A DNA stretch of 64,000 bases from Candidatus Omnitrophota bacterium (GCA_016783745.1 JADHVZ010000006.1:3397-67396); one strand, 5' to 3'. Positions 6,509-51,110 are shown, counted from the first letter of the stretch. The notes: a model not told the origin generated them from the letters alone. Numbers and translations: made by a program.

Positions 6509-6516
6509 AATAACAC

Positions 6517-9873: not shown

Positions 9874-9884
9874 CTCGGCAGTTT

Positions 9885-10142
9885 TTAGCGCTTCATCATC
9901 GCGCAGCTACTCTTCGAGCCCCACCCCTTATACATCTTCCCGTGGCCCTGATAAGCCGAACATACGCTAAAGACCAGAGTAAATGCCGCGGCTACCCAGA
10001 GAGACATGGCGATCACATTTCCGAAGGATCTAAGCAGGCCCTTCTTTAATTTATCCGCTATTACCAGTACAAAGAAACTGAGCATCACTAGAAGCAGCGC
10101 GCTGGTGATCCCGCATAACCCGAAACTCCTCATAGCGATCAT
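9885..10142 (-). CDS. Small hypothetical membrane protein (~85 aa, two predicted TM helices)
   Basis: ORF preceded by AAGGAGG-5nt-ATG; hydrophobic segments ALLLVMLSFFVLVIA and IAMSLWVAAAFTLVFSV; no recognisable family. Confidence 0.5.
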   Translation of the reverse strand: MIAMRSFGLCGITSALLLVMLSFFVLVIADKLKKGLLRSFGNVIAMSLWVAAAFTLVFSVCSAYQGHGKMYKGWGSKSSCAMMKR

Positions 10143-10152
10143 GTGCACCTCC

Positions 10153-33785: not shown

Positions 33786-34958
33786 TTATAAGTACTCTTT
33801 AACTATATCTATATCCTTATCGCCGCGTCCTGAAAGACAGACGATTATGATATTCTTTTTACTCAGTTTGGGCGCAAGCTTTGAGGCCTGATATATCGCG
33901 TGCGCCGGTTCAAGGGCGGGGATGATACCTTCTATCTCAGAAAGCATCTTAAAACCTGCGAGCGCCTCCTTATCGTTGACCGCCACATACGAGGCTCGGC
34001 CGGATTTTTTATAAAAAGAGTGTTCGGGCCCTACTCCGGGATAATCCAATCCAGCGCTTATCGAATGAGTGAAGTTTATCTGGCCGTCACTATCCTGAAG
34101 AACATAACTTTTGCTGCCGTGAAGTATGCCTATACCCCCCTTGATCAGAGTCGCGGCGTGTTTTGACGATGAGATCCCGGCTCCTCCGGCTTCAACGCCG
34201 ACAAATCTGACCTTGTCCTTAAAGAACGGGTAAAACAGGCCCATGGAATTACTGCCTCCGCCCACGCAGGCGAGGAGATAATCCGGTAACCTTCCTTCCT
34301 CCTTAAGTATCTGCGCGCGCGCCTCTTTACCTATTACGGACTGAAAGTCCCTTACCATCTTGGGATACGGGTGCGGCCCTACCACCGATCCAAGAACATA
34401 GTGAGTTGTCCTTATATTAGTGACCCAGTCACGCAGGGTCTCGTTAATGGCGTCTTTTAAAGTCTTTGAACCGCTTGTCACGGGGATGACCTCCGTGCCC
34501 ATAAGGGCCATCCTGAAGACATTAAGCGCCTGCCGCTTCATATCCTCCTGGCCCATATAAACGTGGCATTCGCATCCGAATAGCGCGGCGGCTGTCGCAG
34601 TGGCCACTCCATGTTGGCCCGCTCCGGTCTCCGCGATAATTCGGTTCTTTTTCATGCGCTTAGCCAGAAGCAACTGGCCTATGGTATTGTTTATCTTATG
34701 CGCTCCTGTATGCAGCAAGTCTTCGCGCTTCAGATATATCCTGGCGCCCTTAAATTTTTTTGTCAGGTTGCGCGCAAAATATAAAGGTGTAGGCCTTCCC
34801 GCGTACTTTTTAAGATAGAAATCAAATTCTTTTTTAAATCCGGGGTTTTTCTTCGCCTTAAGATACTCACGCTCAAGTTCATCCAGAGCGGACATGAGAG
34901 TCTCAGGGACATATTTTCCGCCGAATCTTCCGAAGTATCCTCTTTTACCGGGTAACAT
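33786..34958 (-). CDS. trpB: Tryptophan synthase beta chain
   Basis: 390 aa; PLP site HTGAHKINN. Confidence 0.95.
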
Positions 34959-34988
34959 TGTATTTTTCCTTGTTAGACAGCATCATTA

Positions 34989-35055
34989 GGCCGTAGGTTT
35001 ATAGGTTATATAGAAACTCACTTAACCGTACACCGTAAACCGAAAACCGTACACC
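34989..35055. repeat. Low-complexity element of the 'ccgtaaacc/ccgtacacc' family (aaccgtacaccgtaaaccgaaaaccgtacacc), preceded by taggtttataggttata
   Basis: Same words, in inverted-repeat form, at 56047-56124. Confidence 0.7.
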
Positions 35056-37442
35056 TAAATAATGACCAGGCTCTGCTTCTTCCCTGTTAATGGGAAAGAC
35101 AGCTTCAGTATACCGTCTTTGTGCTTAAAATTTATCTCGCTTCCGTCAAGTGAGACACTGTACGGCTTTCGTATTTCTATCAGTATCTCGCAATGACCGC
35201 CCGCGCTTCCGTGCAGGGCAAGCCTCAATTCTCTGTCCGTGCATGAAGCCTTAAGTATCTCAGCCGTGGAATACCTGATCTTCGCCCGCCTGGAAACAGG
35301 CACATTGAGCGGAAGAACATAAGAGCTCCTGTTGGGCATAAGAAGTTTATTTTCCTGCGGTATCGTGGCGGACTTATTTAGACCCGGGATCCGGAAGTTC
35401 AAAGTCACTTCATGCGGTTCGTCGTTGAAATTCGACACAAACAGGAATCCGTATTTTTTATTAGACCTCATCACAGCATGAACATCATTCACTGATGTCT
35501 TTATGCAACGCGGCAGATTAAGGATCTGCATAAAATGGTCTATCAATCCTATTTGATAATCGAGAGTATGCTTCACTGCGAACCCGAGCAAAAGCAATTT
35601 GCCTTTCTTTATCTTCTTAAGGATACCGCACGGTTTTCTGTCTCTGGTCCGCGCTACTACCCGTCTCTTTTTAGACTCAAATACCTTGATATCACCTTCT
35701 ATCAAATAATCTTTTCCGGTGACAAATACCAGATTATCATTTACCGTCTCGCCTATACTGACATCAAATTCTTTTAACAAAGACTCTTCTCTTAAGAGCC
35801 CCATATTTTTATTAGGCGCTGTGGGATTCATGATAAGCGTTCCGCCTCTTTTGACGTACTCGGCTAATTTGAGTTGTGTCGCCTGATCCATATAGTCCAT
35901 TGAAAAGACCCACATGGCGGGAATTTCCTGCAGATCCCTTATCTTCGCTCTTTCAATATCCACCAGATTATAATTATAACCATTGATCATCAGCAGCCTT
36001 GCTATTCCGTCAAAGAAGAAATTATCTCTCGCAAGAGCCATCTGGTCTATGACTGAACCTTTGAGATAACCGGTCTCATAATAAGGCGCATAGAGGCCCA
36101 TTGCAAAATCATAATTTTTCTTTGTATCCGCTATCTGACTTCCGAAGGTCTTCACGAGATCACCGACATCCTCCATAGGCTTGATCTTGGAGTTCTTTTT
36201 TCCCTTACTGTCTATGGGAGCCTGCCATTCATGGTAGGTTCCTCTAAAACCCAATCCCGGCGGATTCAGCCCCCCGCAGAACATATACGCGTTAAGGCCG
36301 TTCAGGCCGTGCCCGATTGAGTATCTCATAAGTAAATTGATATCATTAGGATATATTCTGGGCCGGTCATTCATGCCTCCTACCTGGGCCTCCAAACAGA
36401 CCCTGGGTGCGGTTTTATCGCCTATCATATTCAATCCCTCGGTCATGAGGATAGCGTCATGAAAATTTTCAAAGTTGAGATTTCTCATCTGATACGCGCC
36501 GCCAAAAATAATATGCGGCGTATATTTTATAAAATCCCTGTATTGAAGAACGGTCATCAGCCCCTGATTACCTCTGGCGCATATGTTATAGTCCCAGAAC
36601 ATCGGGATATTGGCTACGAAAGGAAGGTCGATTTTCGCGCCCTTCGCGCGCTTGGATAAAGAATTGTAGTAGCGGGCGTAAAAATCTCTATAGAAATGTA
36701 CCCAGTCCCAGCATCTTCTTACGCCTTCTTCATCCACGTCACCTTTCGGCTGCGGGATCTCCTTAAAGCTCGTATGATTCGTGTAATACCTGTCGTTAAG
36801 GGCGGATAGCTCACCGCCATAAAGCGCCTTCAGGTATTCTCCGTACATCTCGGTCGTAGCCTTATTATAATCCGCGTCACCCATGACCCAATTCATCATG
36901 CCGATCTCGTTATCCAGCTGCACCATTATCACCGGCCCGCCTTTTGTAAAAGAGTTCTTATGGATTATCGGCAGGATCTTCGAATACCACCCGGATACGC
37001 GCTCCTGAAAAACAGGATGCATATAAGAGACCATGGCCTCGTGCGGAACATTCGATCCTTTTCTGTTTTTCGCGCGCGCTTCCTGGTAATTTTCCAGAAA
37101 CCAGGGCGGGGTGCCTTCACCCTTTATCTCCGCGTTAGAAGTAGGGCCTATCCTGGCTATAAGATTAAAGCCGGCGTTTTTGACAAGCTTGATAAAATAT
37201 ATAAGATCCTTTTGAGGAGAAGTCTTACCGGTGAAATCAAACTGGCCTTCTTCATGCTCGTGCCAGGCCCACGGTATGTAAGTGCTTATAGTATTTAATC
37301 CCGTTTCCCTGGCCTTCCTCAGCCTATCCACCCATTTATCCTTCGGTATCCTGAAATAATGGATCTCGCCCGAATAGAGGAAAAAAGGCTCATTATTCAA
37401 CAGGATCTTACCGTCTTTCAATTCGATCTTATTCCTGCCCAT
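35055..37442 (-). CDS. Glycoside hydrolase family 35-like beta-galactosidase
   Basis: 795 aa; N-terminal GEIHYFRIP...GLNTISTYIPWAWHE...FDF...GP...AE...PPWFL and acid/base VQLDNEIG match the GH35 catalytic TIM barrel. Confidence 0.75.
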   Translation of the reverse strand: MGRNKIELKDGKILLNNEPFFLYSGEIHYFRIPKDKWVDRLRKARETGLNTISTYIPWAWHEHEEGQFDFTGKTSPQKDLIYFIKLVKNAGFNLIARIGPTSNAEIKGEGTPPWFLENYQEARAKNRKGSNVPHEAMVSYMHPVFQERVSGWYSKILPIIHKNSFTKGGPVIMVQLDNEIGMMNWVMGDADYNKATTEMYGEYLKALYGGELSALNDRYYTNHTSFKEIPQPKGDVDEEGVRRCWDWVHFYRDFYARYYNSLSKRAKGAKIDLPFVANIPMFWDYNICARGNQGLMTVLQYRDFIKYTPHIIFGGAYQMRNLNFENFHDAILMTEGLNMIGDKTAPRVCLEAQVGGMNDRPRIYPNDINLLMRYSIGHGLNGLNAYMFCGGLNPPGLGFRGTYHEWQAPIDSKGKKNSKIKPMEDVGDLVKTFGSQIADTKKNYDFAMGLYAPYYETGYLKGSVIDQMALARDNFFFDGIARLLMINGYNYNLVDIERAKIRDLQEIPAMWVFSMDYMDQATQLKLAEYVKRGGTLIMNPTAPNKNMGLLREESLLKEFDVSIGETVNDNLVFVTGKDYLIEGDIKVFESKKRRVVARTRDRKPCGILKKIKKGKLLLLGFAVKHTLDYQIGLIDHFMQILNLPRCIKTSVNDVHAVMRSNKKYGFLFVSNFNDEPHEVTLNFRIPGLNKSATIPQENKLLMPNRSSYVLPLNVPVSRRAKIRYSTAEILKASCTDRELRLALHGSAGGHCEILIEIRKPYSVSLDGSEINFKHKDGILKLSFPLTGKKQSLVII

Positions 37443-37457
37443 CGACTTCTCCTATAT

Positions 37458-39248
37458 TTATTTACTTCTTACGAGTTCTATTCTGTCCACATAGATCTTT
37501 GATCTCTCTACCGGATATTTCGCGCGTATATCCAATGAGATCTCAATAACGCGGGAGAGCCCGAATATATTGTCTCCGTAAGTCACGCCGTCATACGGAT
37601 CCCTTTTGAAGTCTTTCCATAGATCAAAGGAATATTTGTTCCATCCGCTCTTATTAAGGAAGATAGGGGGTGAATTATAAATTTCCCCTTCCCTGTCTTT
37701 TATATTTAGATGCGCAACATTGCTCGCGTGGCCGCTGGATCCGTTTGAATATACCCATAGGTTAACGGCATCGTAAGTGCTCCAATCCTGAGGATACAAA
37801 AAAGGCCGCCTTATTGTGGCATTGGCTCTTTTTGCTTTTTCGTTCGGTGTAAACTCGATTCGCATAGAATGTGTACCGTCGACCGCCAGTTCATCCGTCC
37901 AGCCCAATGCTACCTCCGCCTTACTTAAATGCATGAGATCCTCCGGATATGCGGTTTTAAATTTTATATCCGTATATTCAAAGTCATCCACTACCGGCAC
38001 AAATTGGTAATCAGGATCATACTCCAGACTTTCGATCATCCTATTGGATTCATCCAGGTCTTTGAACGCCGAAAAAGGATTAAAGCTGCTCTTGGCGAAA
38101 AGATACCACGAAGTGCTGGAGATGCACAAGGGTTTATCCTGCATAAGCCAGCTGTCATATACAGGCGTCCCCTCATTGCTCGCATAAGGTAAACCTTTTG
38201 TGTGAGGAAAAGCCGGACTATCCGTAAGGCACCTGTCCAGTTCGTTTAAAAAATAGAGCCTTTCCTCTTCCCTGCCGGCCACTTCATATGCCAATACCAT
38301 GTGCGCCGTACCCTCAAACCAGACAGCGTCTTTGTCGGGAAAAGGCGAATTCTTATAGGAAGATCCGAAGTCGAATCCTTCAACCTTTACGTCTTTGACT
38401 TTATAGAGCTGTGAGTTAAGCCCCTTATCAATGGCAAAATCCAGACTAACAGCGTAATCCTTTCCCAGGCTTAATACCGCCCATGAGGACAAATCCGTGG
38501 CAAAATTAGGATTGCGCCTGCCAAGGAAAAATCTTTTCGCTTTATCATCCCAGGCATCATCATCCAGCCATTTCTTTACTTCTTTCGCGGCTCTTAAATA
38601 TTTTTCATCGCTTGTCAGGATGCCCAGATCTCTTAAGCCGGCATAACAGTCAAAATTATGCTCCGAAGATATCCAGACCATGGGATTACCGTTGCCGTAA
38701 TAACCTCCTATTATTCCTCCCTCTATAGACTGCAGGGAAATAAGCCAGTCCGCTATATCTTTCGCGAGCGGAAGGAATTCATCATCACCGGTTTCATGAT
38801 AATAATAGTTCGCCGCCATAAGAACCCAGGCACCCGGTCCGGCGGCCCGGGTCTCCGTCTCTTCTCCGTCTCGTTTATATACATCCGTAAAACCCCATAT
38901 ATCACCTTTTTCCTCAATGTGGGCCTTCCTTACATCATCAAAAAACTTGAGCAATAACCTGGCCCTGTCATAATCCCCTCTAAGCGTAAAAGCCATTGCT
39001 GCCAATGCCTCGTCATAAACAAAACAATCTTCTCCCTTTTCCATACTGGGCAGTAATCCGGTGCGGAAGAGGAGCCATTGCCTGTTAGTCCGCTGATTAG
39101 AAACCAGCCATTGATAAGCCTTATCCGCGTCTGACCACTCCTTATGGCCTCTTACAGCCAGGATATCCTGGATAGCGGGGGTCAAGGCTAAAGACCCGGC
39201 AAGGACGCAAATAATAATTAAGGAAATAATTAATATTTTTTTCATCAT
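37458..39248 (-). CDS. Secreted hypothetical protein, probable alpha/alpha-toroid glycosidase-like domain with C-terminal beta-sandwich (CBM-like) domain
   Basis: 596 aa with signal peptide; no confident family match; C-terminal ~150 aa resembles the CBM-like paralogs 41545-43154 in composition. Confidence 0.45.
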   Translation of the reverse strand: MMKKILIISLIIICVLAGSLALTPAIQDILAVRGHKEWSDADKAYQWLVSNQRTNRQWLLFRTGLLPSMEKGEDCFVYDEALAAMAFTLRGDYDRARLLLKFFDDVRKAHIEEKGDIWGFTDVYKRDGEETETRAAGPGAWVLMAANYYYHETGDDEFLPLAKDIADWLISLQSIEGGIIGGYYGNGNPMVWISSEHNFDCYAGLRDLGILTSDEKYLRAAKEVKKWLDDDAWDDKAKRFFLGRRNPNFATDLSSWAVLSLGKDYAVSLDFAIDKGLNSQLYKVKDVKVEGFDFGSSYKNSPFPDKDAVWFEGTAHMVLAYEVAGREEERLYFLNELDRCLTDSPAFPHTKGLPYASNEGTPVYDSWLMQDKPLCISSTSWYLFAKSSFNPFSAFKDLDESNRMIESLEYDPDYQFVPVVDDFEYTDIKFKTAYPEDLMHLSKAEVALGWTDELAVDGTHSMRIEFTPNEKAKRANATIRRPFLYPQDWSTYDAVNLWVYSNGSSGHASNVAHLNIKDREGEIYNSPPIFLNKSGWNKYSFDLWKDFKRDPYDGVTYGDNIFGLSRVIEISLDIRAKYPVERSKIYVDRIELVRSK

Positions 39249-41536
39249 CTCAACAACTCTATGCTTGTCCTTGAATATTTTGCATAATCGGAATCCGGAT
39301 GATTGTCGATTATATGCTGGTACTCTCTTATGGCCTCTTCTTTTGCCCCAACAGAAGCCAGGGATGACGCAAGTTCAAAACGCGCCATAATTGAAAAATC
39401 GCTATCAGGATAAAGGGCGATCATTTCTTTTAAGAAAGAAATTGTCTTCTGAGCCCTTGCGCCCTGGCTGTATACAGTAAATATACTGAGGGTCTCCTTT
39501 ATAGCGCTTTGAGCCAGATCACTTTCCGAATAATTCACTATGAAATCGCGGAAGGCCTGAATGGCTTTGCTGTATGAACGCTTTTCTTTCAGCGCTACCC
39601 CTATCGCATATGCGGCATCATCCGCTAACTCACTATTAGGGAATTCGGCGATCAATCTTTGATACACATTGACAGCTTCATCATACACCTCATTCCTCTT
39701 ATAGGAACTGGCAAGTTCCATTATCGCAAATGACGCCTCTTCCTGAGAAAGATTCTGTATCACATTATTCATATAAATGTTATATAATATCTTTGCGCGC
39801 TCAACATCGCCGTTGCTAAGCGCCAGCTCCGCTTTTTCCGTAAGCAGCGCCTTTACCTTCCCGGCATCGGTGATCTGCCCTATATTAGCGGCATATTCGC
39901 GTAAAAGGCGCCTGGAAAGCCTGACCTCTCCCTCCTCCTGCAATAATTCCGAATAGGTAAGCAGCGGCATAGCATTGCCTGTCGATTTAGCGTGCGCCAT
40001 TATCTCTTTTTCAAGCCGCTCAAGAGCAACCGTCTCCTGCCCTACAAGAAGATCATTATATATCAACCATTCAAGATACAAGACCTTTAAATAATACTCC
40101 GCGCCTTCCGTTTTTTTCCGGGCGGTTTTCATATGACCCACCACTTTACTGAGGTGCCTCATCTTCTCCGCGTAATAAGTCTCCCACGATCCGATATGCG
40201 CCAGATGCTCTAATTTGCACCATCCCGCCAGCGCGGCGTAATAATGCAAGAGTCCGGAAAATTCTGAATCGGGATAAGAAGACATGTACTCCTCAAGATA
40301 AGAGGAAAGTTGATCGAATCCCCGCTTCTCCAGTAATCTACCGGCCAGATCTTCAAGCATATCCGGAACAGCGGGACTTGACGGAGTCAGATTTAACTGA
40401 TTCTCAAGCTTTTCGATATCACTGTCTACTATAATATCTTCCTTCCAGACTTTTCTCAATGCGCTTCTTTTAACCGCGTTATAGGTACCCCGGCAATATT
40501 CTGATATCGCGAGCAGAAAATTCCTGAATATAGTGTTTCTGAACATCTGCTTGGCCGCGTAATATCCGCCTTTCGGCTTCCTGTCCCCCTTTACCAAGCC
40601 CCAATGCTCTTCCACGTTATCATCCTGGTTGTTTATATCACCGGCTTTGGACCAGTCATCCGCCCACTGGAATAATATGGCGCCTAATATGTGCCTATTG
40701 ACCTTGGCTATCTGGTCGGATATCACATCTTCCTGCAATTTGGCGGTCCAGTAAGTGCTGTAACCCATTTCGGTTATAATGATGGGCTTTTTATACTTAC
40801 GCGAGATCTCTACAAGCTCATCCACTGTCTTCTTCGCCAGGTCAGGATCATACATACCGCTACGCCAGTCAGATACACCCAGGTAAACGTTGTACCCTAG
40901 AATATCCAGGAAATCCGCACCCAGTGTCTTTGCCTCTTCATCAACTATCAGGGTGGCTGCGGTGACAGGCCTTAGCGGATCCTGCTTCTTTACGGTCTCG
41001 TACAGTTCTTTAAGGAAACTATTTACAACATCCTTACCGTAGGCCTTGATGACATCCCCTTTTCCGGTACCGTATGTCCACGGCGCGTCATTCCATATGC
41101 TCCACGCATAAATGCACTCCCTGTTCTTATCCCTTCTTATGTTCCTTACAGCTTCTCTCTTCAGCGCCTGAAGCTGGTAAGGTGAAGTGAAGTCCGTCCA
41201 GTCTCCGGGAAATACTATTGTTTCAATGACCTTTATGCCATACTTATCGGCCAGGTCAAGGATGAATTCAGGGGGCATGCCGTACAGTCTTATCGTATTT
41301 ATTCCCGCCTCTTTGATGCGTTTAAAATCCTCTTCAAAGACCTCGCGCGGTATTTGAGAATAGTGCCGCACTTTCGGATACTGGGTGTCATATGTCACGC
41401 CTTTTATAGCATCAGGTTTTTTCGGCAGCAACACAAGAAAGATGAGTATCGCAAAAAAGAGCGCCAACAATCCCAGAACTAATCGCCTGGCAATCCGTAA
41501 CCGGCCGCCTTCTATCTTGTTTTTACTTTTTAACAT
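39245..41536 (-). CDS. Membrane-anchored clan GH-A-like TIM-barrel (glycosidase-like) domain fused to C-terminal TPR repeats
   Basis: 763 aa; N-terminal TM helix; residues ~40-330 paralogous to ORF 43177-44250 (AGINTIRLYG...LDLADKYGIKVIE...WSIWNDAPW...IITEMGYSTY); C-terminal ~330 aa with repeated A/Y/L-rich TPR-like units. Confidence 0.55.
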   Translation of the reverse strand: MLKSKNKIEGGRLRIARRLVLGLLALFFAILIFLVLLPKKPDAIKGVTYDTQYPKVRHYSQIPREVFEEDFKRIKEAGINTIRLYGMPPEFILDLADKYGIKVIETIVFPGDWTDFTSPYQLQALKREAVRNIRRDKNRECIYAWSIWNDAPWTYGTGKGDVIKAYGKDVVNSFLKELYETVKKQDPLRPVTAATLIVDEEAKTLGADFLDILGYNVYLGVSDWRSGMYDPDLAKKTVDELVEISRKYKKPIIITEMGYSTYWTAKLQEDVISDQIAKVNRHILGAILFQWADDWSKAGDINNQDDNVEEHWGLVKGDRKPKGGYYAAKQMFRNTIFRNFLLAISEYCRGTYNAVKRSALRKVWKEDIIVDSDIEKLENQLNLTPSSPAVPDMLEDLAGRLLEKRGFDQLSSYLEEYMSSYPDSEFSGLLHYYAALAGWCKLEHLAHIGSWETYYAEKMRHLSKVVGHMKTARKKTEGAEYYLKVLYLEWLIYNDLLVGQETVALERLEKEIMAHAKSTGNAMPLLTYSELLQEEGEVRLSRRLLREYAANIGQITDAGKVKALLTEKAELALSNGDVERAKILYNIYMNNVIQNLSQEEASFAIMELASSYKRNEVYDEAVNVYQRLIAEFPNSELADDAAYAIGVALKEKRSYSKAIQAFRDFIVNYSESDLAQSAIKETLSIFTVYSQGARAQKTISFLKEMIALYPDSDFSIMARFELASSLASVGAKEEAIREYQHIIDNHPDSDYAKYSRTSIELLR

Positions 41537-41544
41537 TATATTTT

Positions 41545-42327
41545 CTACTCCGCGTTATTTGTGAAAATGAAATCATCGATGTAGGCGATGTCGCCCTGCA
41601 TATTACCGACATCCTTTCCAAACGCTATGCCTAAATTATCAAGTTGAGACAGATCCACTTTACCGCTGATCTGAGCAAGCGGTATCATTATCCTCTGCCA
41701 CTGGGCAGTCAGGTCAGGGAGCCTATATCTGATCTGAGGGTCATAATCCAAGGCGTGGCCATCCCTGACCAAAAGCTCCATTTTCTCGCCGCCACTTTCG
41801 CCTTTTGCCCAAAATACAATAAATTTATATCCGGAGGCATCCAGCGACTCTACTTTTTTTGGAGTTGTCGTTATATCTATCGTAGAACCCAGATCCATCG
41901 CAAAACTGCCCCAGGCAAGCTCCGGTTTAACGCCAAGTCCGTTTACAAGCCTGAAGGAATTATTGCCGGAACGGACATTCGCCGTATTGTAGCCGAGTGA
42001 AACAGGATCATAGACCCAGGAAACAGGAAACTCGTTTACATTTTCCCAATCAGGTTCCAACGCCCCGTATACACCTATTTCGCCGCCTAGATTATTCGGC
42101 CACCCTTCAAAATCAGCGACGATCAAGGCATCATCCGACACCGCCGCCTTCTCCGATTCCACCATAGGCTTTGAGGGTATTGCGGGCGGGGCTTTCGGTG
42201 TTTCTACTTGACTACTTTGCGCGGTTTCCGGCTCTGAGATAGGCTGTTCCACCTCAGCCTTTTTCCCGCATCCTGAAACCGCGAATAACAGCACAAAAAG
42301 GAGAACACAAAATCTATTCATTATCAT
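41545..42327 (-). CDS. Secreted lipoprotein, CBM-like beta-sandwich domain (paralog of 42435-43154)
   Basis: 260 aa; lipobox AVSGC; shares ADFEGWPNNLGGE(I/V)GVYG...SFRLVNGLG...WGSFAMDLG...F(I/L)VFW with the downstream paralog. Confidence 0.5.
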   Translation of the reverse strand: MIMNRFCVLLFVLLFAVSGCGKKAEVEQPISEPETAQSSQVETPKAPPAIPSKPMVESEKAAVSDDALIVADFEGWPNNLGGEIGVYGALEPDWENVNEFPVSWVYDPVSLGYNTANVRSGNNSFRLVNGLGVKPELAWGSFAMDLGSTIDITTTPKKVESLDASGYKFIVFWAKGESGGEKMELLVRDGHALDYDPQIRYRLPDLTAQWQRIMIPLAQISGKVDLSQLDNLGIAFGKDVGNMQGDIAYIDDFIFTNNAE

Positions 42328-42376
42328 AATTACCTCCTATTGATAATGCACGTATATTATACATAAATCAATGACA

Positions 42377-42408
42377 AAAGCAATACCGAATTAACGGTAT
42401 TGCTTTTG
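42377..42408 (-). terminator. Probable intrinsic terminator (13-bp perfect stem aaaagcaataccg / cggtattgctttt, loop aattaa) downstream of ORF 42435-43154
   Basis: On the minus strand the hairpin is followed by UUUUGUCAUUGAUUU. Confidence 0.45.
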
Positions 42409-42434
42409 CAGAAACAGGATGTATTTTGCGGCGA

Positions 42435-43154
42435 TTATTCGCCGTTGTTAAACATGAAATCGTCTAAATAAACGATCTCGCCTTTCAGGTTGCCGACATC
42501 CCTTCCGAAAGCTATGCCAATATTGTCAAGCGCTGCCAGATCAAGCTTGCCGCTGAACTGCTGCAAAGGAATAACAACCTTCTGCCATTCAGTAGTGGCA
42601 TCCGAAAGCTTATGCTTGACCTGCGGCATATAGTTAAGCGCATGCGCATCTCTCATAAGAAACTGCAACCGCTCTCCGCCTTTTTCGCCCCGTAACCAGA
42701 AAACCAGATATTTAAATCCTGAACAGTCAAAAGATTCCACTCTTTTAGGGATAACTGTTAGATCCGTTGTCGGACCAAGATCCATAGCAAAACTTCCCCA
42801 TGTCTCTTCGGGCTTAAGCCCCAGGCCGTTTACCAGTCTGAATGATTGTCTTCCTCCGTGGACATTCTTGATATCATAAGTCGGCGTTATGGTCTCATAG
42901 ACCCATGAATATGGTACACTCGCTATATCATCCCAATTCGGCTCGAGCGATCCGTAAACACCTACTTCACCGCCCAAATTATTAGGCCAGCCCTCGAAAT
43001 CCGCTATCAAGACAACGCCGGCCTCGGCCTCAGTCACCACGACCTCTTCCATTTCCGTCAGCTCGCTTATCAGATCATCCTGTCCTATAGCAGTATTTAC
43101 AAACAGGAAAGTCGCGACTGCCAGAAATAACGCAAAAAATGTTCTTCTTACCAT
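42435..43154 (-). CDS. Secreted CBM-like beta-sandwich protein (paralog of 41545-42327)
   Basis: 239 aa with signal peptide; ~55% identical to the upstream paralog over the C-terminal 200 aa. Confidence 0.5.
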   Translation of the reverse strand: MVRRTFFALFLAVATFLFVNTAIGQDDLISELTEMEEVVVTEAEAGVVLIADFEGWPNNLGGEVGVYGSLEPNWDDIASVPYSWVYETITPTYDIKNVHGGRQSFRLVNGLGLKPEETWGSFAMDLGPTTDLTVIPKRVESFDCSGFKYLVFWLRGEKGGERLQFLMRDAHALNYMPQVKHKLSDATTEWQKVVIPLQQFSGKLDLAALDNIGIAFGRDVGNLKGEIVYLDDFMFNNGE

Positions 43155-43176
43155 GTCCTACCTCCTTTGTTATTTT

Positions 43177-44250
43177 TTAAAATTTTACTACTCCTCTATA
43201 GCCCCTTGATTTTGTCTGTATCATACCAAAAGCCTGAGACACCGCTTTGTAGCCGCTCTTTTGATCCCTGAAAGCGTCCACTATTCCCCAGTGCTCTTCT
43301 ATATGATTATCCTGGGTCAGGGGATTTCCCGCTTTATGCCATCCATCGGACCATTGGAACACTACGACCCCGGCTACCTTTGTACCCGCAGCCTTTATTT
43401 GCGCTTCCACTACTTTACCCTGACTGTACTTTTTACAATAAGTGCTGTACCCTGTTTCCAGGATCAATCCCGGCTTCTTTTGCTGTATACTGCATATACG
43501 TTCTATTTTGCTGACCTGCTTCTTAGCCTCTCTCAGGCTAAATCCCCCATTGAACCAGTCTGTGATCCCTACAAAAGCATTAAAACCCAAAACATCCAGA
43601 AAACCAAAGCCTATGTCCTCGCCCTCTTCTCCCAGTATATTAGAACCTGTCACCGGGTGATCAGGGTCACTTTCTTTGATGGCATCATATATTTCCTTCA
43701 AAAAAGCGTTTACTGTCCTCTTGTCATACTTTTTAAGTATGGATCCTTCTTTGCTCCACCTGAAAGGCATATCGTTCCATATGGACCACATTAGTATAGC
43801 CGGGTGGTCTTTATCTCTTTCGACATAGGCCAGAGCTGTTCGCTTCAGTCCCTCAAGGTCAGACTTGGAGTTGAATTTCGTGCCTCCGCCCGGATAACAT
43901 ATATTTTCGATGACTTTCAGTCCGTACTTATCCGCCAGGTCTAATACACTTGTAGGGAGCGGCGCGTATGTACGTATGGTATTGATGCCGGCCTGCCTCA
44001 TCATCTCGAAATCCTTTTCCCATACGCTGAAAGGTACGCTCTTAAAATCCTGCTTTGGGCCGTAGTCTAAAGAGTAGCTCACGCCTTTCACATAGAAAAG
44101 CTGGCCGTTTACATATATATTTCTTTCATCCCAGGTTATCTTAGCGGGTTTCTTGACTTTATCCTGGCAATCCGCGACATCTACCCCGGATGACAGGAGG
44201 AACGCGAGACACAAAAAACCGCTTAATATATTTCTGATCAGCCTAACCAT
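43177..44250 (-). CDS. Secreted clan GH-A-like TIM-barrel glycosidase-like protein (paralog of N-domain of 39245-41536)
   Basis: 357 aa with signal peptide; QAGINTIRTYAPLPTSVLDLADKYGLKVIE, WSIWNDMPF, ILETGYSTY. Confidence 0.55.
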   Translation of the reverse strand: MVRLIRNILSGFLCLAFLLSSGVDVADCQDKVKKPAKITWDERNIYVNGQLFYVKGVSYSLDYGPKQDFKSVPFSVWEKDFEMMRQAGINTIRTYAPLPTSVLDLADKYGLKVIENICYPGGGTKFNSKSDLEGLKRTALAYVERDKDHPAILMWSIWNDMPFRWSKEGSILKKYDKRTVNAFLKEIYDAIKESDPDHPVTGSNILGEEGEDIGFGFLDVLGFNAFVGITDWFNGGFSLREAKKQVSKIERICSIQQKKPGLILETGYSTYCKKYSQGKVVEAQIKAAGTKVAGVVVFQWSDGWHKAGNPLTQDNHIEEHWGIVDAFRDQKSGYKAVSQAFGMIQTKSRGYRGVVKF

Positions 44251-46664
44251 ACGTCCACTATATGTGTTTTGTTATCGTTTCTTGCTCTTACAATTTTATG
44301 TTTCTGCTCAATACCGTCGACTATTATACGCTTTACGCCGCTTTGGACTCCCATGGGGTTTTTAATAGTGATCTTGTACTTATCCCCCCTGAAAAGTCTT
44401 GTTATGGAACATTTTTTCCAGTGCGAAGGTATAGAAGGGTCTATCCGCAGTCCATTAAACTCTCTGTGTACACCTAAAAGATATTCTGTAGCGGCCAGGT
44501 ATGTCCACGCCGCGGTGCCGGTTATCCAGCTAAAAGCTCCCTCACCATATCTGTAAGGATGTTCCGGGCCTATTAGATATTCCGCATATACGTAAGGCTC
44601 TGTCTTGTAAAGATTCATGTCCTTCTGGCTGCTCGGCATGATCTTCCTCATGCTCTCATACGCCTTGTTCCCGCGTCCTGCCATGCAGTCAGCGACTATC
44701 TTGAACGTCGCGGCATGGCAAAATACGGCGGCGTTCTCCTTGGTACCTTCGGAAAACATGGTTATCCGGCCAAGCTTGGGATTGTAATTAGAGTAAGCCG
44801 GAAAAAAAAGAGCTATGCCGTGTTTTCCGTCCAGGTACTTATCGACTGCCTTAAATAATTTTTTCCTCCGTCCGGCAGTCGCGACACCACTTAAGACCGC
44901 CCAACTCTGGGTGTTTACGAATATCTTACCCTCACTATTTTTAGCTGAACCGTATATGGTATCGCAGTCCGTAAATCCGCGCAAATACCAGCTTCCGTCC
45001 CAGCAGTGCTTATTTATACGTTCGGTCATGATTTTAGCGCGGTTTCTGAATTGTTTGGCCTTATTTCCGTAGCCTATGATGTCCGCCAGCTCCAATAAAA
45101 TACTGTATGAGCGCACAAGCGCCATTGCCAGCCAGACACTTTCACCTTTTAAGTGCTTTCCTGCCGCATCTATGCCGTCGTTCCAGTCCGCGTGGCCGAT
45201 CAGCGGTAAGCCGCGTTTTCCGGTATCCGTAAATGTAAAATTGAGATTCTTCTCAAGATGCTCGAACAAAGTCCCCTCGCCGTCCCTAACGGCGCCACCC
45301 TTCCAATGTACATCCTTCCTGGTAGCCTTTTCTCTCCAGGCGTCTTTCATATAGGGGAATCTCTCAAGAAGGATCTTCTTATCGCCTGTTTCTTTCACAT
45401 AAGCCGAAACTGTCGAAGTCAACCAGACGGGGTGATCCTTATTTGGCGCGAAAGCGGCCGGACCCCTGGTAGATGACCAGCCCGGAGCGCTTGAACCATC
45501 CCTTCTTATAAGGGTCGCCAAGGTGGCTATTTTACCATACGCGTGCTTCGGATTTATCGACATAATGCCTTCGGCATCCTGGCACGAATCCCTATAGCCC
45601 CTTCCGCCGGAACCTTCATGGTAGTAAGACGGAGACCTGGACCACAGATTACAGATATACATCTGGTACTTTACCCAGATATTTATCATAGTATTAAAAT
45701 TTTTGTCCGGAGTCTCTACGGTAACATTATCAAGGATCCTATTTTGCCACAGTTTTTTGGTCTTTTCGAATTCAGACTGAGCGGTTTTGACATTTCTGTA
45801 TTTTGAGACTATCGCTTTTGCTTTATTTTTATTGTCTGTCTGACCCAATATAACCGCGAAAACTTTTTCCTCTTTCGGGCCAAGCCCGGCCTTAAGGCAA
45901 AAAGAGCCTATCCCGTCCTCCCCCGAACAGATCTCTGAAGATATATACCTGTCGGACGACACGGATTCCGGACAGGACTCATTGTTATATCTTCCCAAAA
46001 ATCTGTCTTTCCTCGTCGCGTAACCACTGGCCGGCAGGCTTGAAGCCAAGAAAGCTACAGAGTGAAACGGCTGTATATTATTCGCCTCCCACATAGCGGT
46101 CTTTCTCGCGAATATTATCTCATCTTTTTTGTCGTACCATACCCTGTTATAAAGGTTCATAATATTTCTATAGCGAAGCTCCATATGGTAATCGCCCATA
46201 AGCCACTCGACATAAGGGGCAATAGTAAGGCTTCTCTTCCTGGATGTAGTGTTTTTAAGCCTGACAAGCCAGATCTCACAACTGTCTTCAGGAGGCACAA
46301 AGTATGTGACTTCAGATTCTATTCCGTGATTTCTTGTCTTTATCGCTGTATATCCCAGGCCATGCCTGGCTTCAAAAAAATCGAATTTAGCTCTTACCGG
46401 CTGGTATGTAGCGCCCCAGTATTTTTTTGTTTTATTATCCCTTAAATATATATATTTACCGGGCCTATCCTTATGATAATTTTGCGGAGCCCAGCGCGTT
46501 GTCCTGTCAGTCCGGCAGTCTTTATAAAAACTATAACCTCCGGCACACTGCGAAATAACGCAGCAATAATCATTATTAGTCAGATAATTTATCCAGGGCC
46601 GTGGCGTCTGGGGTGTTTTAATTATATATTCCATGCCGTCTTTTGAAAAATTTCCGTATTTCAT
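44238..46664 (-). CDS. GH94 glycoside phosphorylase (cellobiose/chitobiose/cellodextrin phosphorylase-like)
   Basis: 808 aa; N-terminus MKYGNFSKDGMEYIIKTPQTPRPWINYLTN matches the characteristic cellobiose-phosphorylase N-terminus; GHADWNDG motif; length typical of GH94. Confidence 0.8.
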   Translation of the reverse strand: MKYGNFSKDGMEYIIKTPQTPRPWINYLTNNDYCCVISQCAGGYSFYKDCRTDRTTRWAPQNYHKDRPGKYIYLRDNKTKKYWGATYQPVRAKFDFFEARHGLGYTAIKTRNHGIESEVTYFVPPEDSCEIWLVRLKNTTSRKRSLTIAPYVEWLMGDYHMELRYRNIMNLYNRVWYDKKDEIIFARKTAMWEANNIQPFHSVAFLASSLPASGYATRKDRFLGRYNNESCPESVSSDRYISSEICSGEDGIGSFCLKAGLGPKEEKVFAVILGQTDNKNKAKAIVSKYRNVKTAQSEFEKTKKLWQNRILDNVTVETPDKNFNTMINIWVKYQMYICNLWSRSPSYYHEGSGGRGYRDSCQDAEGIMSINPKHAYGKIATLATLIRRDGSSAPGWSSTRGPAAFAPNKDHPVWLTSTVSAYVKETGDKKILLERFPYMKDAWREKATRKDVHWKGGAVRDGEGTLFEHLEKNLNFTFTDTGKRGLPLIGHADWNDGIDAAGKHLKGESVWLAMALVRSYSILLELADIIGYGNKAKQFRNRAKIMTERINKHCWDGSWYLRGFTDCDTIYGSAKNSEGKIFVNTQSWAVLSGVATAGRRKKLFKAVDKYLDGKHGIALFFPAYSNYNPKLGRITMFSEGTKENAAVFCHAATFKIVADCMAGRGNKAYESMRKIMPSSQKDMNLYKTEPYVYAEYLIGPEHPYRYGEGAFSWITGTAAWTYLAATEYLLGVHREFNGLRIDPSIPSHWKKCSITRLFRGDKYKITIKNPMGVQSGVKRIIVDGIEQKHKIVRARNDNKTHIVDVWLG

Positions 46665-46671
46665 TCAGCTT

Positions 46672-47979
46672 CTATCTTTCCCTCTCCTTCAGTAATTTGT
46701 TTGCCTTAGGAGTAGCTTCTCTTATCACTTCCTCAACATCAGCTGTCCCGTTAAAGACCAGATCCAGCTTAGGCGATAGATATAATTCGTTTACTTCACG
46801 CCATTTAATGTGAAAAGGTTCGAATACGACATGTCCTACGGCTTCATTAAGCATACCTTTATTTTTTGGCGGACTATCGCTGCCCGCAAAGTACGGGCCT
46901 AAGGCTATTGGCTTAAGGGCCGGCTGCGCCAGTCCCATTTCAGACAAAAATATTTGAGCTTTATCACTCGTCAGGGCTTTTACGATGCTCCACGCAAGTT
47001 CCGGATATTTAGTGGATTTGAGCACGCAGTAACCCGATCCGCCGGTCCCGAATTTCCTTATACCGGAAGGGCCTTTGGGAAACATGGCCACATCCCAATC
47101 AAAATCCTTTATGTTGCCAAACATAACGCTTTCCCAGAAGCCGGACTGATACATGGCAAGCTTCTGTGACATAAATAACTGCTGTGCGCCCATGCCAAGG
47201 TTACCGAATTCAACCGGGCTGGGAGAGACCTTATGTTTATTGATAAGGTCCGAGTAAAACTGTAATCCCTCTATACTTTCCGGCCTGCCCAGAGTGAATT
47301 CCCTGGGGTCTCCCACGTTATCTACTATGCTGCCGCCGTTTGAATAAACAAAATTTTGCCAGGTCCAACCGTAAAAACCGTACTGCGCCACCCTTCCGTT
47401 TTCATCCAGCTTAGTAAGCGCCTTTGCCTTGGAAAGCATATCATCCCAGGTCCAATCATCAGCAGGATACGGTATGCCGGCTTTGTCAAACAAGCGCTTG
47501 TTATAAAATACACAGGCAAATGGCGCCGTGTCTCTGGGTATGCAGTAAGTCTTACCGTCCTTAGTAAATCTCTCGATCATCTCCGGGAAAAAATCGTCCA
47601 CATTAAATTCTGTATCACTCTCTATGTAAGGCTTAAGATCCAGAAAAGCATCCATAGCCCAGAAATTCACAAATATATTTGATTCCACAAACATGACGTC
47701 CGGAGCCGTGCCGCCCGCTATTCTTATGAGCAGCTTGTTTGTGTAAGACCCGGCCGGTGTGTGCTCAATTTTAGCGACTGCTTCCGGATGGCCTTTTTGC
47801 CATTCATCGATTATCTTGTTGATTATCTCTATCTCATCCGGCCCGCCCCATATAGCGACTTTGATCACAGGCTGTTTGGAAGAAGTGCCGCATCCGGCCA
47901 TATTGAGTAATGAAAAGACTGTAATAAGGGTAAGTATAAAAAAAACAACTGGCTTTTTATTGATGCTAAATCTGCTCAT
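46672..47979 (-). CDS. Carbohydrate ABC transporter substrate-binding lipoprotein (family 1 extracellular solute-binding protein)
   Basis: 435 aa; lipobox MAGCG; sugar-SBP fold composition; no permease/ATPase genes adjacent. Confidence 0.8.
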   Translation of the reverse strand: MSRFSINKKPVVFFILTLITVFSLLNMAGCGTSSKQPVIKVAIWGGPDEIEIINKIIDEWQKGHPEAVAKIEHTPAGSYTNKLLIRIAGGTAPDVMFVESNIFVNFWAMDAFLDLKPYIESDTEFNVDDFFPEMIERFTKDGKTYCIPRDTAPFACVFYNKRLFDKAGIPYPADDWTWDDMLSKAKALTKLDENGRVAQYGFYGWTWQNFVYSNGGSIVDNVGDPREFTLGRPESIEGLQFYSDLINKHKVSPSPVEFGNLGMGAQQLFMSQKLAMYQSGFWESVMFGNIKDFDWDVAMFPKGPSGIRKFGTGGSGYCVLKSTKYPELAWSIVKALTSDKAQIFLSEMGLAQPALKPIALGPYFAGSDSPPKNKGMLNEAVGHVVFEPFHIKWREVNELYLSPKLDLVFNGTADVEEVIREATPKANKLLKERER

Positions 47980-48055
47980 TTTTTACCTCACATTTATTTC
48001 TATGTGAATTTTCGATATAAGCAAAGAGGTAAGTATTATAACATAATCATTGAAA

Positions 48056-48676
48056 TTAGTCAAGAGCCTTAATAATGCTTATTATCCGCTCCATAAGCTT
48101 TTTATCCTTTTTACCCGGGATTAGCTCTATGGAGCTGGATATGTCTACTCCATAAGGCCTTACAGCTTTTATAGCTTCCTCTATATTATATAGAGAGAGG
48201 CCCCCTGAAAGTATCATGGGTATGCCCAGGCTCCTGGCTTTAAGCGCAAGGCCCCAGTCAAAAGTCTTTCCTGTGCCGCCGTAAGCCTCTTTAGAGTAAG
48301 TATCCAAAAGGCAGGCGAAAATATCCTTATAATCAGTTATGGGCTTGAGGCTTTTTTCGTCTTTGATCCTGAACGCCTTTATCACCTTCCACCGCAACAG
48401 CTTAGAACAAAAAAGCGGGTTTTCATCGCCGTGAAGCTGGAGGGCGTCTAAAGAACAATTTCCGGCAATTCTTTCAATATTAGACAGGTCTTCATTCACG
48501 AAAACGCCGACTTTTAGAACGCTTCCCTTGAGCCCCTTTATGATGGATCTGGCTTTTTTCGGATCCACTTTTCTGGGGCTTTCAGCGAATACAAAGCCGA
48601 TCGCGTCAGCGCCTAAGTCCACAGCGCCTTGCGCGTCTTCCTGATTGGTTATACCGCATATCTTGATCTTGGTCAT
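48056..48676 (-). CDS. trpF: N-(5'-phosphoribosyl)anthranilate isomerase
   Basis: 206 aa; MTKIKICGIT...ADAIGFVF. Confidence 0.9.
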   Translation of the reverse strand: MTKIKICGITNQEDAQGAVDLGADAIGFVFAESPRKVDPKKARSIIKGLKGSVLKVGVFVNEDLSNIERIAGNCSLDALQLHGDENPLFCSKLLRWKVIKAFRIKDEKSLKPITDYKDIFACLLDTYSKEAYGGTGKTFDWGLALKARSLGIPMILSGGLSLYNIEEAIKAVRPYGVDISSSIELIPGKKDKKLMERIISIIKALD

Positions 48677-48703
48677 TATTCTATTGGATAGCTGGATACT
48701 GAT

Positions 48704-48734
48704 GTTACGAGACGTTACGAAAGATTACGTAACC
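48704..48734. repeat. 'gttacgag' family element (gttacgagacgttacgaaagattacgtaacc) in trpC-trpF spacer
   Basis: Direct gttacga words followed by inverted cgtaac; related to tandem array 26772-26820. Confidence 0.75.
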
Positions 48735-48743
48735 TCAATATAA

Positions 48744-49523
48744 TTACCCTATTAACTCCCTCATCTTTTCTCCTATGTCCTCGCTGCGCATCAGGGCTTC
48801 GCCTACAAGCACCGCGTTGATCCCGAAAGACCTTAAATATGAGATATTCTCCTTTGATTTTATGCCGCTTTCGGAGACTATCACCTTACCGCCCGGGATC
48901 ATCTTTAAAAGGCGGGGTGTGGTCTTTATGTCGACCTTAAAGGTATGCAGGTCTCTATTGTTTATGCCTATTATATCACACCCTGAATCCAGCGCTTTTT
49001 TGACGTCTTCTTCGCCATGCACTTCGACAAGAAAATCAATGGAATACCGGCTGCCTATTTCCAGAAATCTTTTTATTTCCTCGACCGACAGCAGGTCCGC
49101 GATCAAAAGCGCGGCGTCTGCTCCCGCTAAAACCGATTCGTATATCTGATATTCGTCTATTATAAAATCTTTTCTTAAAATAGGCAGGGATATACCCTTC
49201 CTTATTTCTTTTAAATATGACAGCTTACCCTGGAAAAATTTCTTGTCTGTAAGCACTGATATAGCCGATGCGCCATTTGCCTGGTATACAGAAGCTATCT
49301 TGACAGGATTAAAATCTTCTCTTATCACTCCGGCTGAAGGGGACGCCTTCTTCACCTCGGCTATAAGATGGATCTTGTGGGGTTTGCTTAGTGAGTTTTT
49401 AAAAAGATTCTTTGGGCGGGGCGCTATACCCTCAAGCCTCGCTATCAGATCCTCCTGAGGGGCCTTTTTCCTGGATCTTTCTACTTCCTTTCTCTTCGTT
49501 TCTATTATCTCGGTTAGGATCAT
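48744..49523 (-). CDS. trpC: Indole-3-glycerol phosphate synthase
   Basis: 259 aa; IAEVKKASPS motif. Confidence 0.9.
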   Translation of the reverse strand: MILTEIIETKRKEVERSRKKAPQEDLIARLEGIAPRPKNLFKNSLSKPHKIHLIAEVKKASPSAGVIREDFNPVKIASVYQANGASAISVLTDKKFFQGKLSYLKEIRKGISLPILRKDFIIDEYQIYESVLAGADAALLIADLLSVEEIKRFLEIGSRYSIDFLVEVHGEEDVKKALDSGCDIIGINNRDLHTFKVDIKTTPRLLKMIPGGKVIVSESGIKSKENISYLRSFGINAVLVGEALMRSEDIGEKMRELIG

Positions 49524-50533: not shown

Positions 50534-50542
50534 TCTAACTCC

Positions 50543-51109
50543 CTATTTGATCTGCAGAAAATTATTAAGGATCTTTTTCCCTTCGCCGGTCAATATCGAT
50601 TCAGGGTGAAACTGTACGCCGTATATATGATGGTCCTTATGCTTTAAGGCCATTATCTCTTTTTCCTTTGTCTCGGCAGTGATTAAAAAGCAATCGGGAA
50701 GGGAACTTCTTTCCGCGATAAGCGAATGATATCTTGTAGCTTCAAAAGGGTTTTTTACACCTTTAAATATATCTCTTCCGTCGTGCATAATGGCCGATGT
50801 CTTACCGTGCATCAGTTTTTCCGCCCTTACTATGACTCCGCCGAAGACCTCCGCTACCGCCTGATGGCCCAGGCACACCCCAAGGATAGGTATTTTACCC
50901 GCGAAGGCCCTGATGGCAGGCTCTGATATACCGGCATCCGAAGGATAGCCCGGCCCGGGAGATATTATTATCCGCTCCGGATCCAGTTTTTCCATATCTT
51001 TAAGATCTATCTTGTCATTACGATAGACTTCAAGTTCCGCCCCAAGCTCACCAAGGTATTGCACCAGGTTATACGTAAACGAATCATAATTATCTATTAC
51101 CAATATCAT
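50543..51109 (-). CDS. trpG: Anthranilate synthase component II (class I glutamine amidotransferase)
   Basis: 188 aa; GVCLGHQ catalytic Cys motif and HPES. Confidence 0.85.
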
Positions 51110-51110
51110 C

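Follow-up and report, generated by a model that had tools for sequence, protein, structure and literature searches.

A conserved eight-gene cassette in the trp operon of a Candidatus Omnitrophota bacterium encodes Trp-Asn-Asp TIM barrels and is a candidate for beta-glucan capture and catabolism

The genes described here lie in a 64,000-nt stretch of DNA from a Candidatus Omnitrophota bacterium (GCA_016783745.1 JADHVZ010000006.1:3397-67396). This whole stretch is referred to as the window, and positions are counted from its first letter. A first-pass annotation had singled out four open reading frames (ORFs) at 39245–44250, two encoding TIM barrels and two encoding beta-sandwich proteins. All four ORFs were present and lay on the minus strand, as did all genes of the region. 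The window matched a Candidatus Omnitrophica metagenome-assembled genome, with protein P0001 (locus tag ISS26_02275) at 100% identity. They are part of an eight-gene cassette, and the functional unit reaches beyond 39245–44250. In order, the cassette consisted of a solute-binding protein (SBP) lipoprotein (46672–47979; Pfam SBP_bac_1, E = 4e-41; lipobox NMAG↓C); a cytoplasmic disaccharide-type phosphorylase of glycoside hydrolase family 94 (GH94) with 808 aa (44238–46664; Pfam GH94 catalytic domain, E = 2e-108); a short secreted TIM barrel of 357 aa (43177–44250); two proteins resembling carbohydrate-binding modules of families 30 and 11 (CBM30/CBM11-like), of which copy A is a secreted beta-sandwich of 239 aa (42435–43154) and copy B a beta-sandwich lipoprotein of 260 aa (41545–42327); a transmembrane (TM)-anchored TIM barrel of 763 aa, continued by a helical linker and tetratricopeptide repeats (TPRs) of the YbgF/BamD type (39245–41536; Pfam GH2_C and TPR_6); an exported 596-aa protein with an (alpha/alpha)6-like N-terminal domain and a C-terminal sandwich resembling CBM11 and Lyase_N (37458–39248); and a cytoplasmic GH35 enzyme of the IaSGT clade (35055–37442). 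Both barrels carried a Trp-Asn-Asp (WND) motif at the position of the catalytic acid/base.

The cassette interrupted the trp operon (33786–52577), with trpE, G, D, C and F on one side and trpB and A on the other; the insertion point was between trpF and trpB. The GC content and skew were uniform through the cassette. The SBP, GH94 and GH35 genes lay on one strand, with short or overlapping junctions. The GH94 and short-barrel genes overlapped, and the genes of the TM-TIM-TPR protein and the 596-aa protein overlapped by 4 nt, which suggests translational coupling. At least four other Omnitrophota genomes (L001, L009, L010, and L014) had the same cassette within their trp operon, at about 57–85% protein identity. 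On a short contig (L013), a partial cassette ran from the SBP gene to the start of the TM-TIM-TPR gene, with the flanks off the contig. The ORFs of the window were intact, and orthologs 57–80% identical occurred in several genomes and samples. The first-pass annotation had described the region as an island. A recent genomic island was rejected because the composition was uniform and the insertion was syntenic in these genomes; the cassette entered between trpF and trpB long ago and has been conserved vertically.

Pairwise BLASTP bore out the proposal that the four ORFs form two paralogous pairs. The short barrel shared 44% identity over 290 aa (E = 3e-83) with residues 44–332 of the 763-aa ORF, in the N-terminal half of that protein, and the motifs cited for this pair were found in both copies. 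CBM-like copies A and B were 57% identical over 206 aa (E = 5e-98). The sequence blocks cited for the sandwich pair were also present, except that the last of them, given as F(I/L)VFW, was slightly off, since the two sequences are FIVFW and YLVFW.

Sequence inspection and a hydropathy scan showed a plain signal peptide in the 357-aa ORF. In the 763-aa ORF, the hydropathy scan showed a single 19-residue hydrophobic anchor at residues 19–37 (41426–41482) with no cleavage motif. The TIM barrel of this protein occupied residues 44–335 (40532–41407) and the TPR region approximately residues 560–755 (39272–39859). The TPR array exceeded the Pfam thresholds for TPR_6 (55.6 bits, cutoff 26.3), TPR_14 (33.1 bits, cutoff 23.5), and YfiO (29.2 bits, cutoff 25), while the NCBIfam model tol_pal_ybgF matched with E = 2e-20 and 73 bits, under the equivalog cutoff of 90. 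The membrane anchor and C-terminal TPR array that had been predicted for the long copy were thus both recovered.

Both barrels passed the gathering threshold of Pfam GH2_C (PF02836; threshold 21 bits), the short copy with 57.5 bits and the long copy with 47.9 bits. The short copy was modelled with AlphaFold from a 43-sequence alignment; the model was a (beta/alpha)8 barrel with a predicted local distance difference test score (pLDDT) of 91, and these results agreed with the proposed likeness to clan GH-A. The nearest solved structures were GH2 and GH157 enzymes. The barrel began about 40 residues past the signal peptide or TM anchor, and Pfam detected neither the sugar-binding jelly-roll nor the Ig-like N-terminal domains of GH2 ahead of either barrel. 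The two proteins are members of the GH-A/GH2_C-like superfamily that depart from it in one defining feature, the acid/base Glu.

HMMER alignments placed the segment WSIWND against WSVANE, WSITNE, and LVINE of solved enzymes, and the segment LILETGYS against their nucleophile strands. At the acid/base position, Asp160 of the short copy and Asp150 of the long copy were aligned with the Glu of 6u7j, 6ncw, and 9fz9. The nucleophile at the end of beta7, Glu265 in the short copy and Glu256 in the long copy, was aligned with that of the same three structures and was invariant in alignment A1. The end of beta4, where clan GH-A enzymes have Asn-Glu, thus carried Asn-Asp in both copies and throughout their clade. 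Alignment to solved GH2 and GH157 enzymes therefore supported the earlier observation that both copies have Asp for the acid/base Glu and keep a TExG-type nucleophile. The matched families had their catalytic residues at the same positions as the barrels, and the sandwiches were stand-alone proteins rather than appended domains, so neither of the results named in advance as fatal to the proposed module was obtained.

The N-x-Y motif of beta6 was N-V-Y in the long copy and N-A-F in the short copy (Phe226). The Tyr of this motif, which we take to be the catalytic Tyr of GH2 (GUS, LacZ), equivalent to Tyr468 of E. coli GUS, was present in 93–96% of the clade members and of their relatives with Asn-Glu (NE relatives). 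Phe stood at this position in the short copy and in 18 of its 20 orthologs (P0003–P0020). It is proposed that the coupled change from Gly-Asn-Glu to Trp-Asn-Asp remodelled the acid/base and +1 subsite region. For the long copy, we infer that the Asp would serve as the general acid/base. Because the catalytic Tyr has been lost as well, the short copy may have become a less active enzyme, or may function in transglycosylation or binding. From their residues, the barrels can be described as working like retaining GH-A glycosidases and are placed in neither GH2 nor GH157.

The motif W-x-[IML]-W-N-D-[AMV]-P was found in all 56 of 56 close homologs. In the next shell, at about 30% identity and mostly from marine Flavobacteriia, the corresponding segment was WELGNEYN. 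When 1.84 billion representatives were searched exhaustively with a profile, 6343 matched, and motifs were counted in the best 150 of these. Among these 150 sequences, 32 had N-D at the acid/base pair (full W-N-D in 29) and 99 had N-E. The Glu nucleophile was present in 89 of the N-E sequences and in 28 of the N-D sequences, the remaining four being fragments that ended before that strand. A column comparison of the WND and NE groups showed sharp switches only at G158W and E160D, plus F321W; Y59, D80, N90, R93, N159, D195, D219, N224, E265, D302, and E318 were common to both groups. In a neighbour-joining tree, the WND sequences were monophyletic. As read from these alignments, the WND state is a fixed character of the clade and not decay.

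In the same tree, the TM-TIM-TPR proteins formed their own subclade and the short copy of the window grouped elsewhere, which indicated that the two TIM paralogs represent an old split. A recent tandem duplication of the pair was rejected on this ground. The short copy was missing from the otherwise identical cassettes of L009 and L010.

Five members of the WND clade (P0052, P0322, P0323, P0325, and P0328) were fusions of a PilZ domain, a TM helix and a coiled coil to the TIM barrel. In their N-terminal module, the PilZ domain had intact RxxxR and DxSxxG motifs and was followed by one TM helix and a long coiled coil. The PilZ-TM module was also fused to the (alpha/alpha)6 domain in two loci (L081, 12588–14525; L077, 11619–13622), again with RxxxR and DxSxxG intact. 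These fusions suggest cyclic di-GMP (c-di-GMP)-linked control of a periplasmic glycosidase fold; to our knowledge, no precedent has been described. P0328 (705 aa, PilZ-TM-TIM), the sole clade member with W-D-N, also had Gln in place of the nucleophile and has probably lost catalysis while retaining the fold. In another group of clade proteins of about 440–470 aa (P0024, P0026–P0033, P0041, P0044, and P0046), the signal peptide was separated from the barrel by a small conserved domain, beta-rich and with the pattern 'LKNG..G.I', and by a charged linker; the 'LKNG..G.I' element also preceded the barrel in the PilZ fusions. Barrels of the same superfamily with the canonical GNE motif were seen in the giant proteins P0343 (3733 aa), P0378 (4203 aa), and P0399 (4523 aa), which call to mind the giant genes reported from Omnitrophota.

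Of the two CBM-like proteins, one had been described as a lipoprotein and the other as carrying a signal peptide. The 260-aa copy B indeed had a lipobox (AVSG↓C), followed by a low-complexity tether of about 50 aa rich in Pro, Glu, and Ser, and the 239-aa copy A had a plain signal peptide by sequence inspection and hydropathy scan. Copy A scored 27.6 bits with Pfam CBM30 (threshold 27) and copy B 19.1 bits, below the threshold; CBM11 was below the cutoff in both. A PDB sequence search with the CBM-like protein gave no match, and the protein was placed by fold comparison alone, which showed the beta-jelly-roll fold of CBM30/CBM11. CBM11 and CBM30 bind beta-1,4 and mixed-linkage glucans. Both CBM-like proteins are exported on their own and are not appended to a carbohydrate-active enzyme. 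They can be described as putatively working like CBM30/CBM11, but as stand-alone proteins.

The CBM-like family had 144 homologs, nearly all from Omnitrophota and often two per contig. Across phyla, identity was about 59–60% for the CBM-like proteins, 50% for the barrel and 55% for the (alpha/alpha)6 domain. Distant fusions of a TIM barrel to CBM11-like domains existed (for example, P0047 and P0330). A search for Rosetta-stone fusions found that the C-terminal sandwich of P0047 (E = 0.05) and the sandwiches of P0311 (E = 0.009) were only marginally like the CBM-like proteins of the window, and BLASTP detected no similarity between the latter and the C-terminus of the 596-aa protein. In the very distant cluster L081, tandem CBM-like genes (9878–10636 and 10662–11297) again encoded a lipoprotein and a signal-peptide form, and the C-terminal domains of the two were nearly identical; the lipoprotein-plus-soluble layout may thus have arisen, or been homogenised, repeatedly.

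The 596-aa protein family had no Pfam assignment. Its match to the GH76-like (alpha/alpha)6 fold was weak, both as a single sequence and as a 38-sequence profile (E = 0.003); its C-terminal part matched Pfam Lyase_N weakly, and homologs carried CBM11 matches. Since the matches were weak only, the protein was filed under no GH family, including the (alpha/alpha)6 families of beta-1,2-glucanases reviewed in PMC12102758. In 11 of 11 genome loci with a full-length CBM-like gene, a homolog of the (alpha/alpha)6 protein was adjacent or nearby. As this core was kept elsewhere too, the conserved core is the triad of CBM-like protein, TM-TIM-TPR protein and (alpha/alpha)6 protein, and the coordinates of the system were extended to 37458.

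Co-occurrence of orthologs with GH94 and GH35 genes, put forward earlier as a check, held for the trp-operon cassettes of L001, L009, L010, and L014. It failed in Auribacterota (L011/L016) and UBP3 (L015), where only the CBM-like, TM-TIM-TPR and 596-aa homologs were found, followed by LacI regulators. LacI-family regulators stood beside the triad in six independent loci; besides Auribacterota and UBP3, they were found in L012, L017, L020, and L021. Distant versions of the cluster had an SBP, two ATP-binding cassette (ABC) permeases and a GH116 beta-glucosidase. In L012, a GH144-type (PF10091) gene lay near CBM-like, (alpha/alpha)6, GH94, and GH35 genes. The (alpha/alpha)6 protein was present without any TIM barrel in L018, L019, L021, and L023. 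The only glycosyltransferase (GT) gene seen across the cassette and those related loci that were listed or Pfam-scanned was a GT4 gene at the outer end of L012, beyond GH35 and three unrelated genes.

Distant clusters of Omnitrophota and Planctomycetota comprised an SBP, two TIM barrels, CBM-like proteins and an (alpha/alpha)6 protein, and their barrels had the canonical GNE motif. The cassette of the window can thus be regarded as a derived member of a widespread, uncharacterised cluster of the Planctomycetota–Verrucomicrobiota–Chlamydiota (PVC) type. In L017, a gene for an 867-aa protein with two canonical-NE barrels (4142–6745) was flanked by close orthologs of the CBM-like gene and of the (alpha/alpha)6 gene, so the partner families are not tied to the Asp variant.

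The best solved relative of the GH35 enzyme was IaSGT (PDB 7vkw, E = 5e-111), the beta-1,2-glucosyltransferase of Ignavibacterium album. The enzyme keeps N175, E176, E343 and, at subsite -1, E102 of IaSGT, and it has Asn for L100 and Met for R349. In IaSGT, Arg349 and Leu100 set the recognition of sophorose and aglycone, and Arg349 varies among homologs (PMC8861115). An assignment as exo-beta-D-glucosaminidase (GlmA) was rejected because Asn, not Asp, precedes the acid/base Glu, as in IaSGT (PMC8861115). The GH35 enzyme is of neither the beta-galactosidase nor the glucosaminidase type. The GH94 enzyme was closest to cellobiose phosphorylase (E = 2e-143), and its 808 aa correspond to the dimeric cellobiose/chitobiose phosphorylase type and not to the SOGP type of about 1100 aa (PMC5309861).

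The solved relatives of the SBP bind unrelated oligosaccharides, so the SBP gave no information on specificity; Lin1841, which binds sophoro-oligosaccharides, matched with E = 1.5e-13 only. Among the window ORFs that were scanned, the SBP lipoprotein was an orphan; the distantly related cluster L081 had both permeases adjacent. Apart from GH2, the structural neighbours of the barrels were GH157 and GH158, of which GH158 is a beta-1,3-glucanase family. GH157 is an endo-beta-1,3-glucanase family (CAZy). It was concluded that the putative substrate is a beta-glucan or beta-glucoside, with its linkage left ambiguous by conflicting hints.

The best regional match to a sigma-70-like promoter was at 48035–48063 on the minus strand (TTGACT, 17-nt spacer, TG-TATAAT), with 11 of 12 consensus positions and an extended -10 element. 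This candidate, identified by consensus only, lies just upstream of the SBP gene and overlaps the end of trpF. Within the cassette, a 15-bp perfect stem-loop (42374–42409, minus strand) directly follows the 3' end of the CBM-like A gene, and hairpins of unrelated sequence filled the same intergenic gap in L013, L001/L014, and L010. The stem-loop could act in termination within the operon or in stabilising the RNA. An extended -10-like element, TGTATAAT (42356–42363, minus strand), was read from the intergenic sequence before CBM-like B; as a consensus match only, it may be an internal promoter. The hairpin together with TGTATAAT suggests that the cassette may be expressed in a split or graded manner.

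We lean towards reading the four ORFs as the exported half of an eight-gene cassette for the capture and catabolism of a beta-glucan or beta-glucoside. In the envelope, the CBM30/CBM11-like proteins would bind the glycan, one of them lipid-anchored on a long tether and the other soluble. The WND barrel at the inner membrane, its short secreted paralog and the (alpha/alpha)6 protein would cut or remodel the glycan to oligosaccharides, and partner proteins probably dock on the long copy's TPR arm. The SBP lipoprotein would pass the oligosaccharides to an ABC importer, and in the cytoplasm GH94 and the IaSGT-like GH35 would turn them into glucose-1-phosphate and glucose. Since LacI regulators recur around the core, as do ABC importers and cytoplasmic beta-glucoside enzymes, a role in beta-glucan catabolism is most likely.

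Several points weigh against this reading. An acid/base Asp is unusual in clan GH-A and, with the catalytic Tyr missing from the short copy as well, hydrolysis cannot be taken for granted. A Pfam scan of window ORFs, which covered the cassette, about 10 kb to each side of it and the largest of the other ORFs, detected no ABC permease or ATPase gene. The hints on linkage conflict, GH94 being of cellobiose type, GH35 of beta-1,2 type with two specificity residues changed, and GH157/GH158 acting on beta-1,3 linkages. Fusions to TPR or PilZ are better known from exopolysaccharide secretion systems than from catabolic loci, and the three exported families have no enzymologically characterised member. 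The cautious wording of the first-pass annotation, a candidate glycan-binding/processing module, was fair in this respect, since neither of the two families it described has a characterised member. Its interpretation is supported in part, as it did not mention the 596-aa (alpha/alpha)6 partner, the coupled switch from GNE to WND throughout the clade, the exchange of Tyr for Phe in the short copy, or the connection to the IaSGT-like GH35, LacI regulators and PilZ-fused relatives.

The universal replacement of the acid/base Glu raises the question whether the WND barrels hydrolyse glycans at all. They could be binders, sensors or pure transglycosylases, with the TM-TIM-TPR protein as a scaffold or receptor organising the CBM-like proteins and the (alpha/alpha)6 enzyme, and with the latter doing the cutting. 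The orthologs of the short copy with a fixed Phe at the catalytic Tyr would fit this role, and P0328, with WDN and a Gln nucleophile, indicates that the fold can be kept even without catalysis. A TPR arm implies protein-protein docking, and the (alpha/alpha)6 gene is the most constant partner of the CBM-like gene, present even in the four loci without a TIM barrel. However, Asp still carries a carboxylate, the long copy has the Tyr, and the nucleophile Glu and about 15 other active-site positions are conserved as in the NE relatives, which would be unexpected for a mere binder. Non-hydrolytic barrels are considered unlikely.

Less probable again, although several domain fusions point towards it, is that the exported triad processes a glycan of the cell itself, a periplasmic glucan or exopolysaccharide, possibly under c-di-GMP control and comparable to BcsZ/BcsC, PelA/PelB, and AlgL/AlgK, while GH94, GH35, and SBP recycle the fragments. 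The long copy joins a TPR array to a glycosidase fold that follows a membrane anchor, five clade members are PilZ-TM-coiled-coil-TIM proteins, and the PilZ-TM-(alpha/alpha)6 fusions of L081 and L077 have intact motifs; moreover, PilZ genes flank P0024 in L004, and P0052 adjoins GT2 and DegT genes in divergent orientation. The proteins of the window, however, have no PilZ domain, and no glycosyltransferase or synthase was found in the cassette or in the listed or scanned related loci, apart from the GT4 gene of L012. LacI regulators, ABC importers and a cytoplasmic phosphorylase or beta-glucosidases are hallmarks of nutrient catabolism. Chance similarity or decaying pseudogenes have a negligible probability: nothing was found in favour of them, and they were refuted by the E-values of the two pairs (5e-98 and 3e-83), by intact ORFs with conserved orthologs, and by structure models of high confidence.

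Omnitrophota are uncultured and their carbon acquisition is poorly known. The cassette offers a concrete and conserved candidate for beta-glucan capture and catabolism in one lineage of this group. The WND clade is a natural experiment in which a GH-A active site has been kept while the acid/base Glu was shortened to Asp and the preceding Gly was replaced by Trp. The WND state is fixed over dozens of 50%-identity clusters. Its characterisation could reveal a new specificity or establish a new family or subfamily of CAZy, and the two partner families, (alpha/alpha)6 and CBM-like, are likewise uncharacterised. The PilZ-fused relatives offer a testable idea of c-di-GMP control over a periplasmic glycosidase. 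A bolder proposal, which we regard as possible yet doubtful, is that the WND barrel, the CBM-like protein and the (alpha/alpha)6 protein form an undescribed envelope glycanase system of Omnitrophota and other PVC bacteria with two or three new CAZy-level families. The change from GNE to WND would then mark a new specificity or mechanism (for example, the first TIM-barrel enzyme for beta-1,2-glucan, or an obligate transglycosylase), and the PilZ relatives would be gated by c-di-GMP through one TM helix. If the barrels are ordinary endoglucanases, they would be a routine addition to known families.

Among characterised enzymes, GH157 (9fz9, Labilibaculum antarcticum) resembled the barrels in being a stand-alone (beta/alpha)8 catalytic domain without the N-terminal domains of GH2. 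The profile match covered the whole barrel with E = 1e-17 (identity 17% only), and the TE.GYS nucleophile strand, the (F/Y)xADxWxKxG motif of beta8 and the EEW motif were shared. However, GH157 keeps the canonical N-E acid/base, whereas the barrels of the window have W-N-D, and the domains appended to the long barrel differ (TPR and TM anchor). Literature searches gave nothing on 9FZ9 and no structural paper on GH157. The barrels were similar to the GH2 TIM domain (PF02836; beta-glucuronidases 6u7j and 1bhg, beta-galacturonidase 6ncw) in that they passed the Pfam threshold and their catalytic positions aligned. They differed from it by the missing sugar-binding and Ig-like N-terminal domains, the Asp acid/base and, in the short copy, Phe for Tyr. 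The CBM-like proteins shared with the beta-glucan-binding CBM30/CBM11 modules of Clostridium thermocellum cellulases a Pfam CBM30 score that reaches the threshold in copy A. Unlike those modules, they are stand-alone exported proteins and are unusually conserved, more so than the neighbouring catalytic domains.

The beta-1,2-glucan (SGL) cluster of I. album contains IaSGT, GH94, an ABC binding protein, and GH144 beta-1,2-glucanases (PMC8861115). The cassette shares with it the IaSGT-clade GH35, GH94, and ABC SBP genes, and the related locus L012 also has the GH144-type gene (PF10091). In contrast to the SGL cluster, the window has no GH144 or GH3 gene, and its exported enzymes are WND barrels and an unclassified (alpha/alpha)6 protein. 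In addition, L100 and R349 of IaSGT are changed here, and GH94 is nearer to cellobiose phosphorylase than to the beta-1,2-specific enzymes. Like glycan utilisation clusters of the ABC-importer type, the cassette combines an SBP with co-oriented genes for cytoplasmic glycoside-processing enzymes; unlike them, it came with neither a permease nor an ATPase gene, as far as the ORFs of the window were scanned. BcsC/BcsZ, PelB/PelA, and AlgK/AlgL are TPR-bearing partners in exopolysaccharide secretion. Like these, the long copy joins a periplasmic glycan-cleaving fold to a TPR scaffold, and some relatives are fused to PilZ. The cassette and its close syntenic relatives differ from them in having no synthase, beta-barrel porin or GT, and in the window the TPR array is fused to the enzyme behind an inner-membrane anchor, in a catabolic context.

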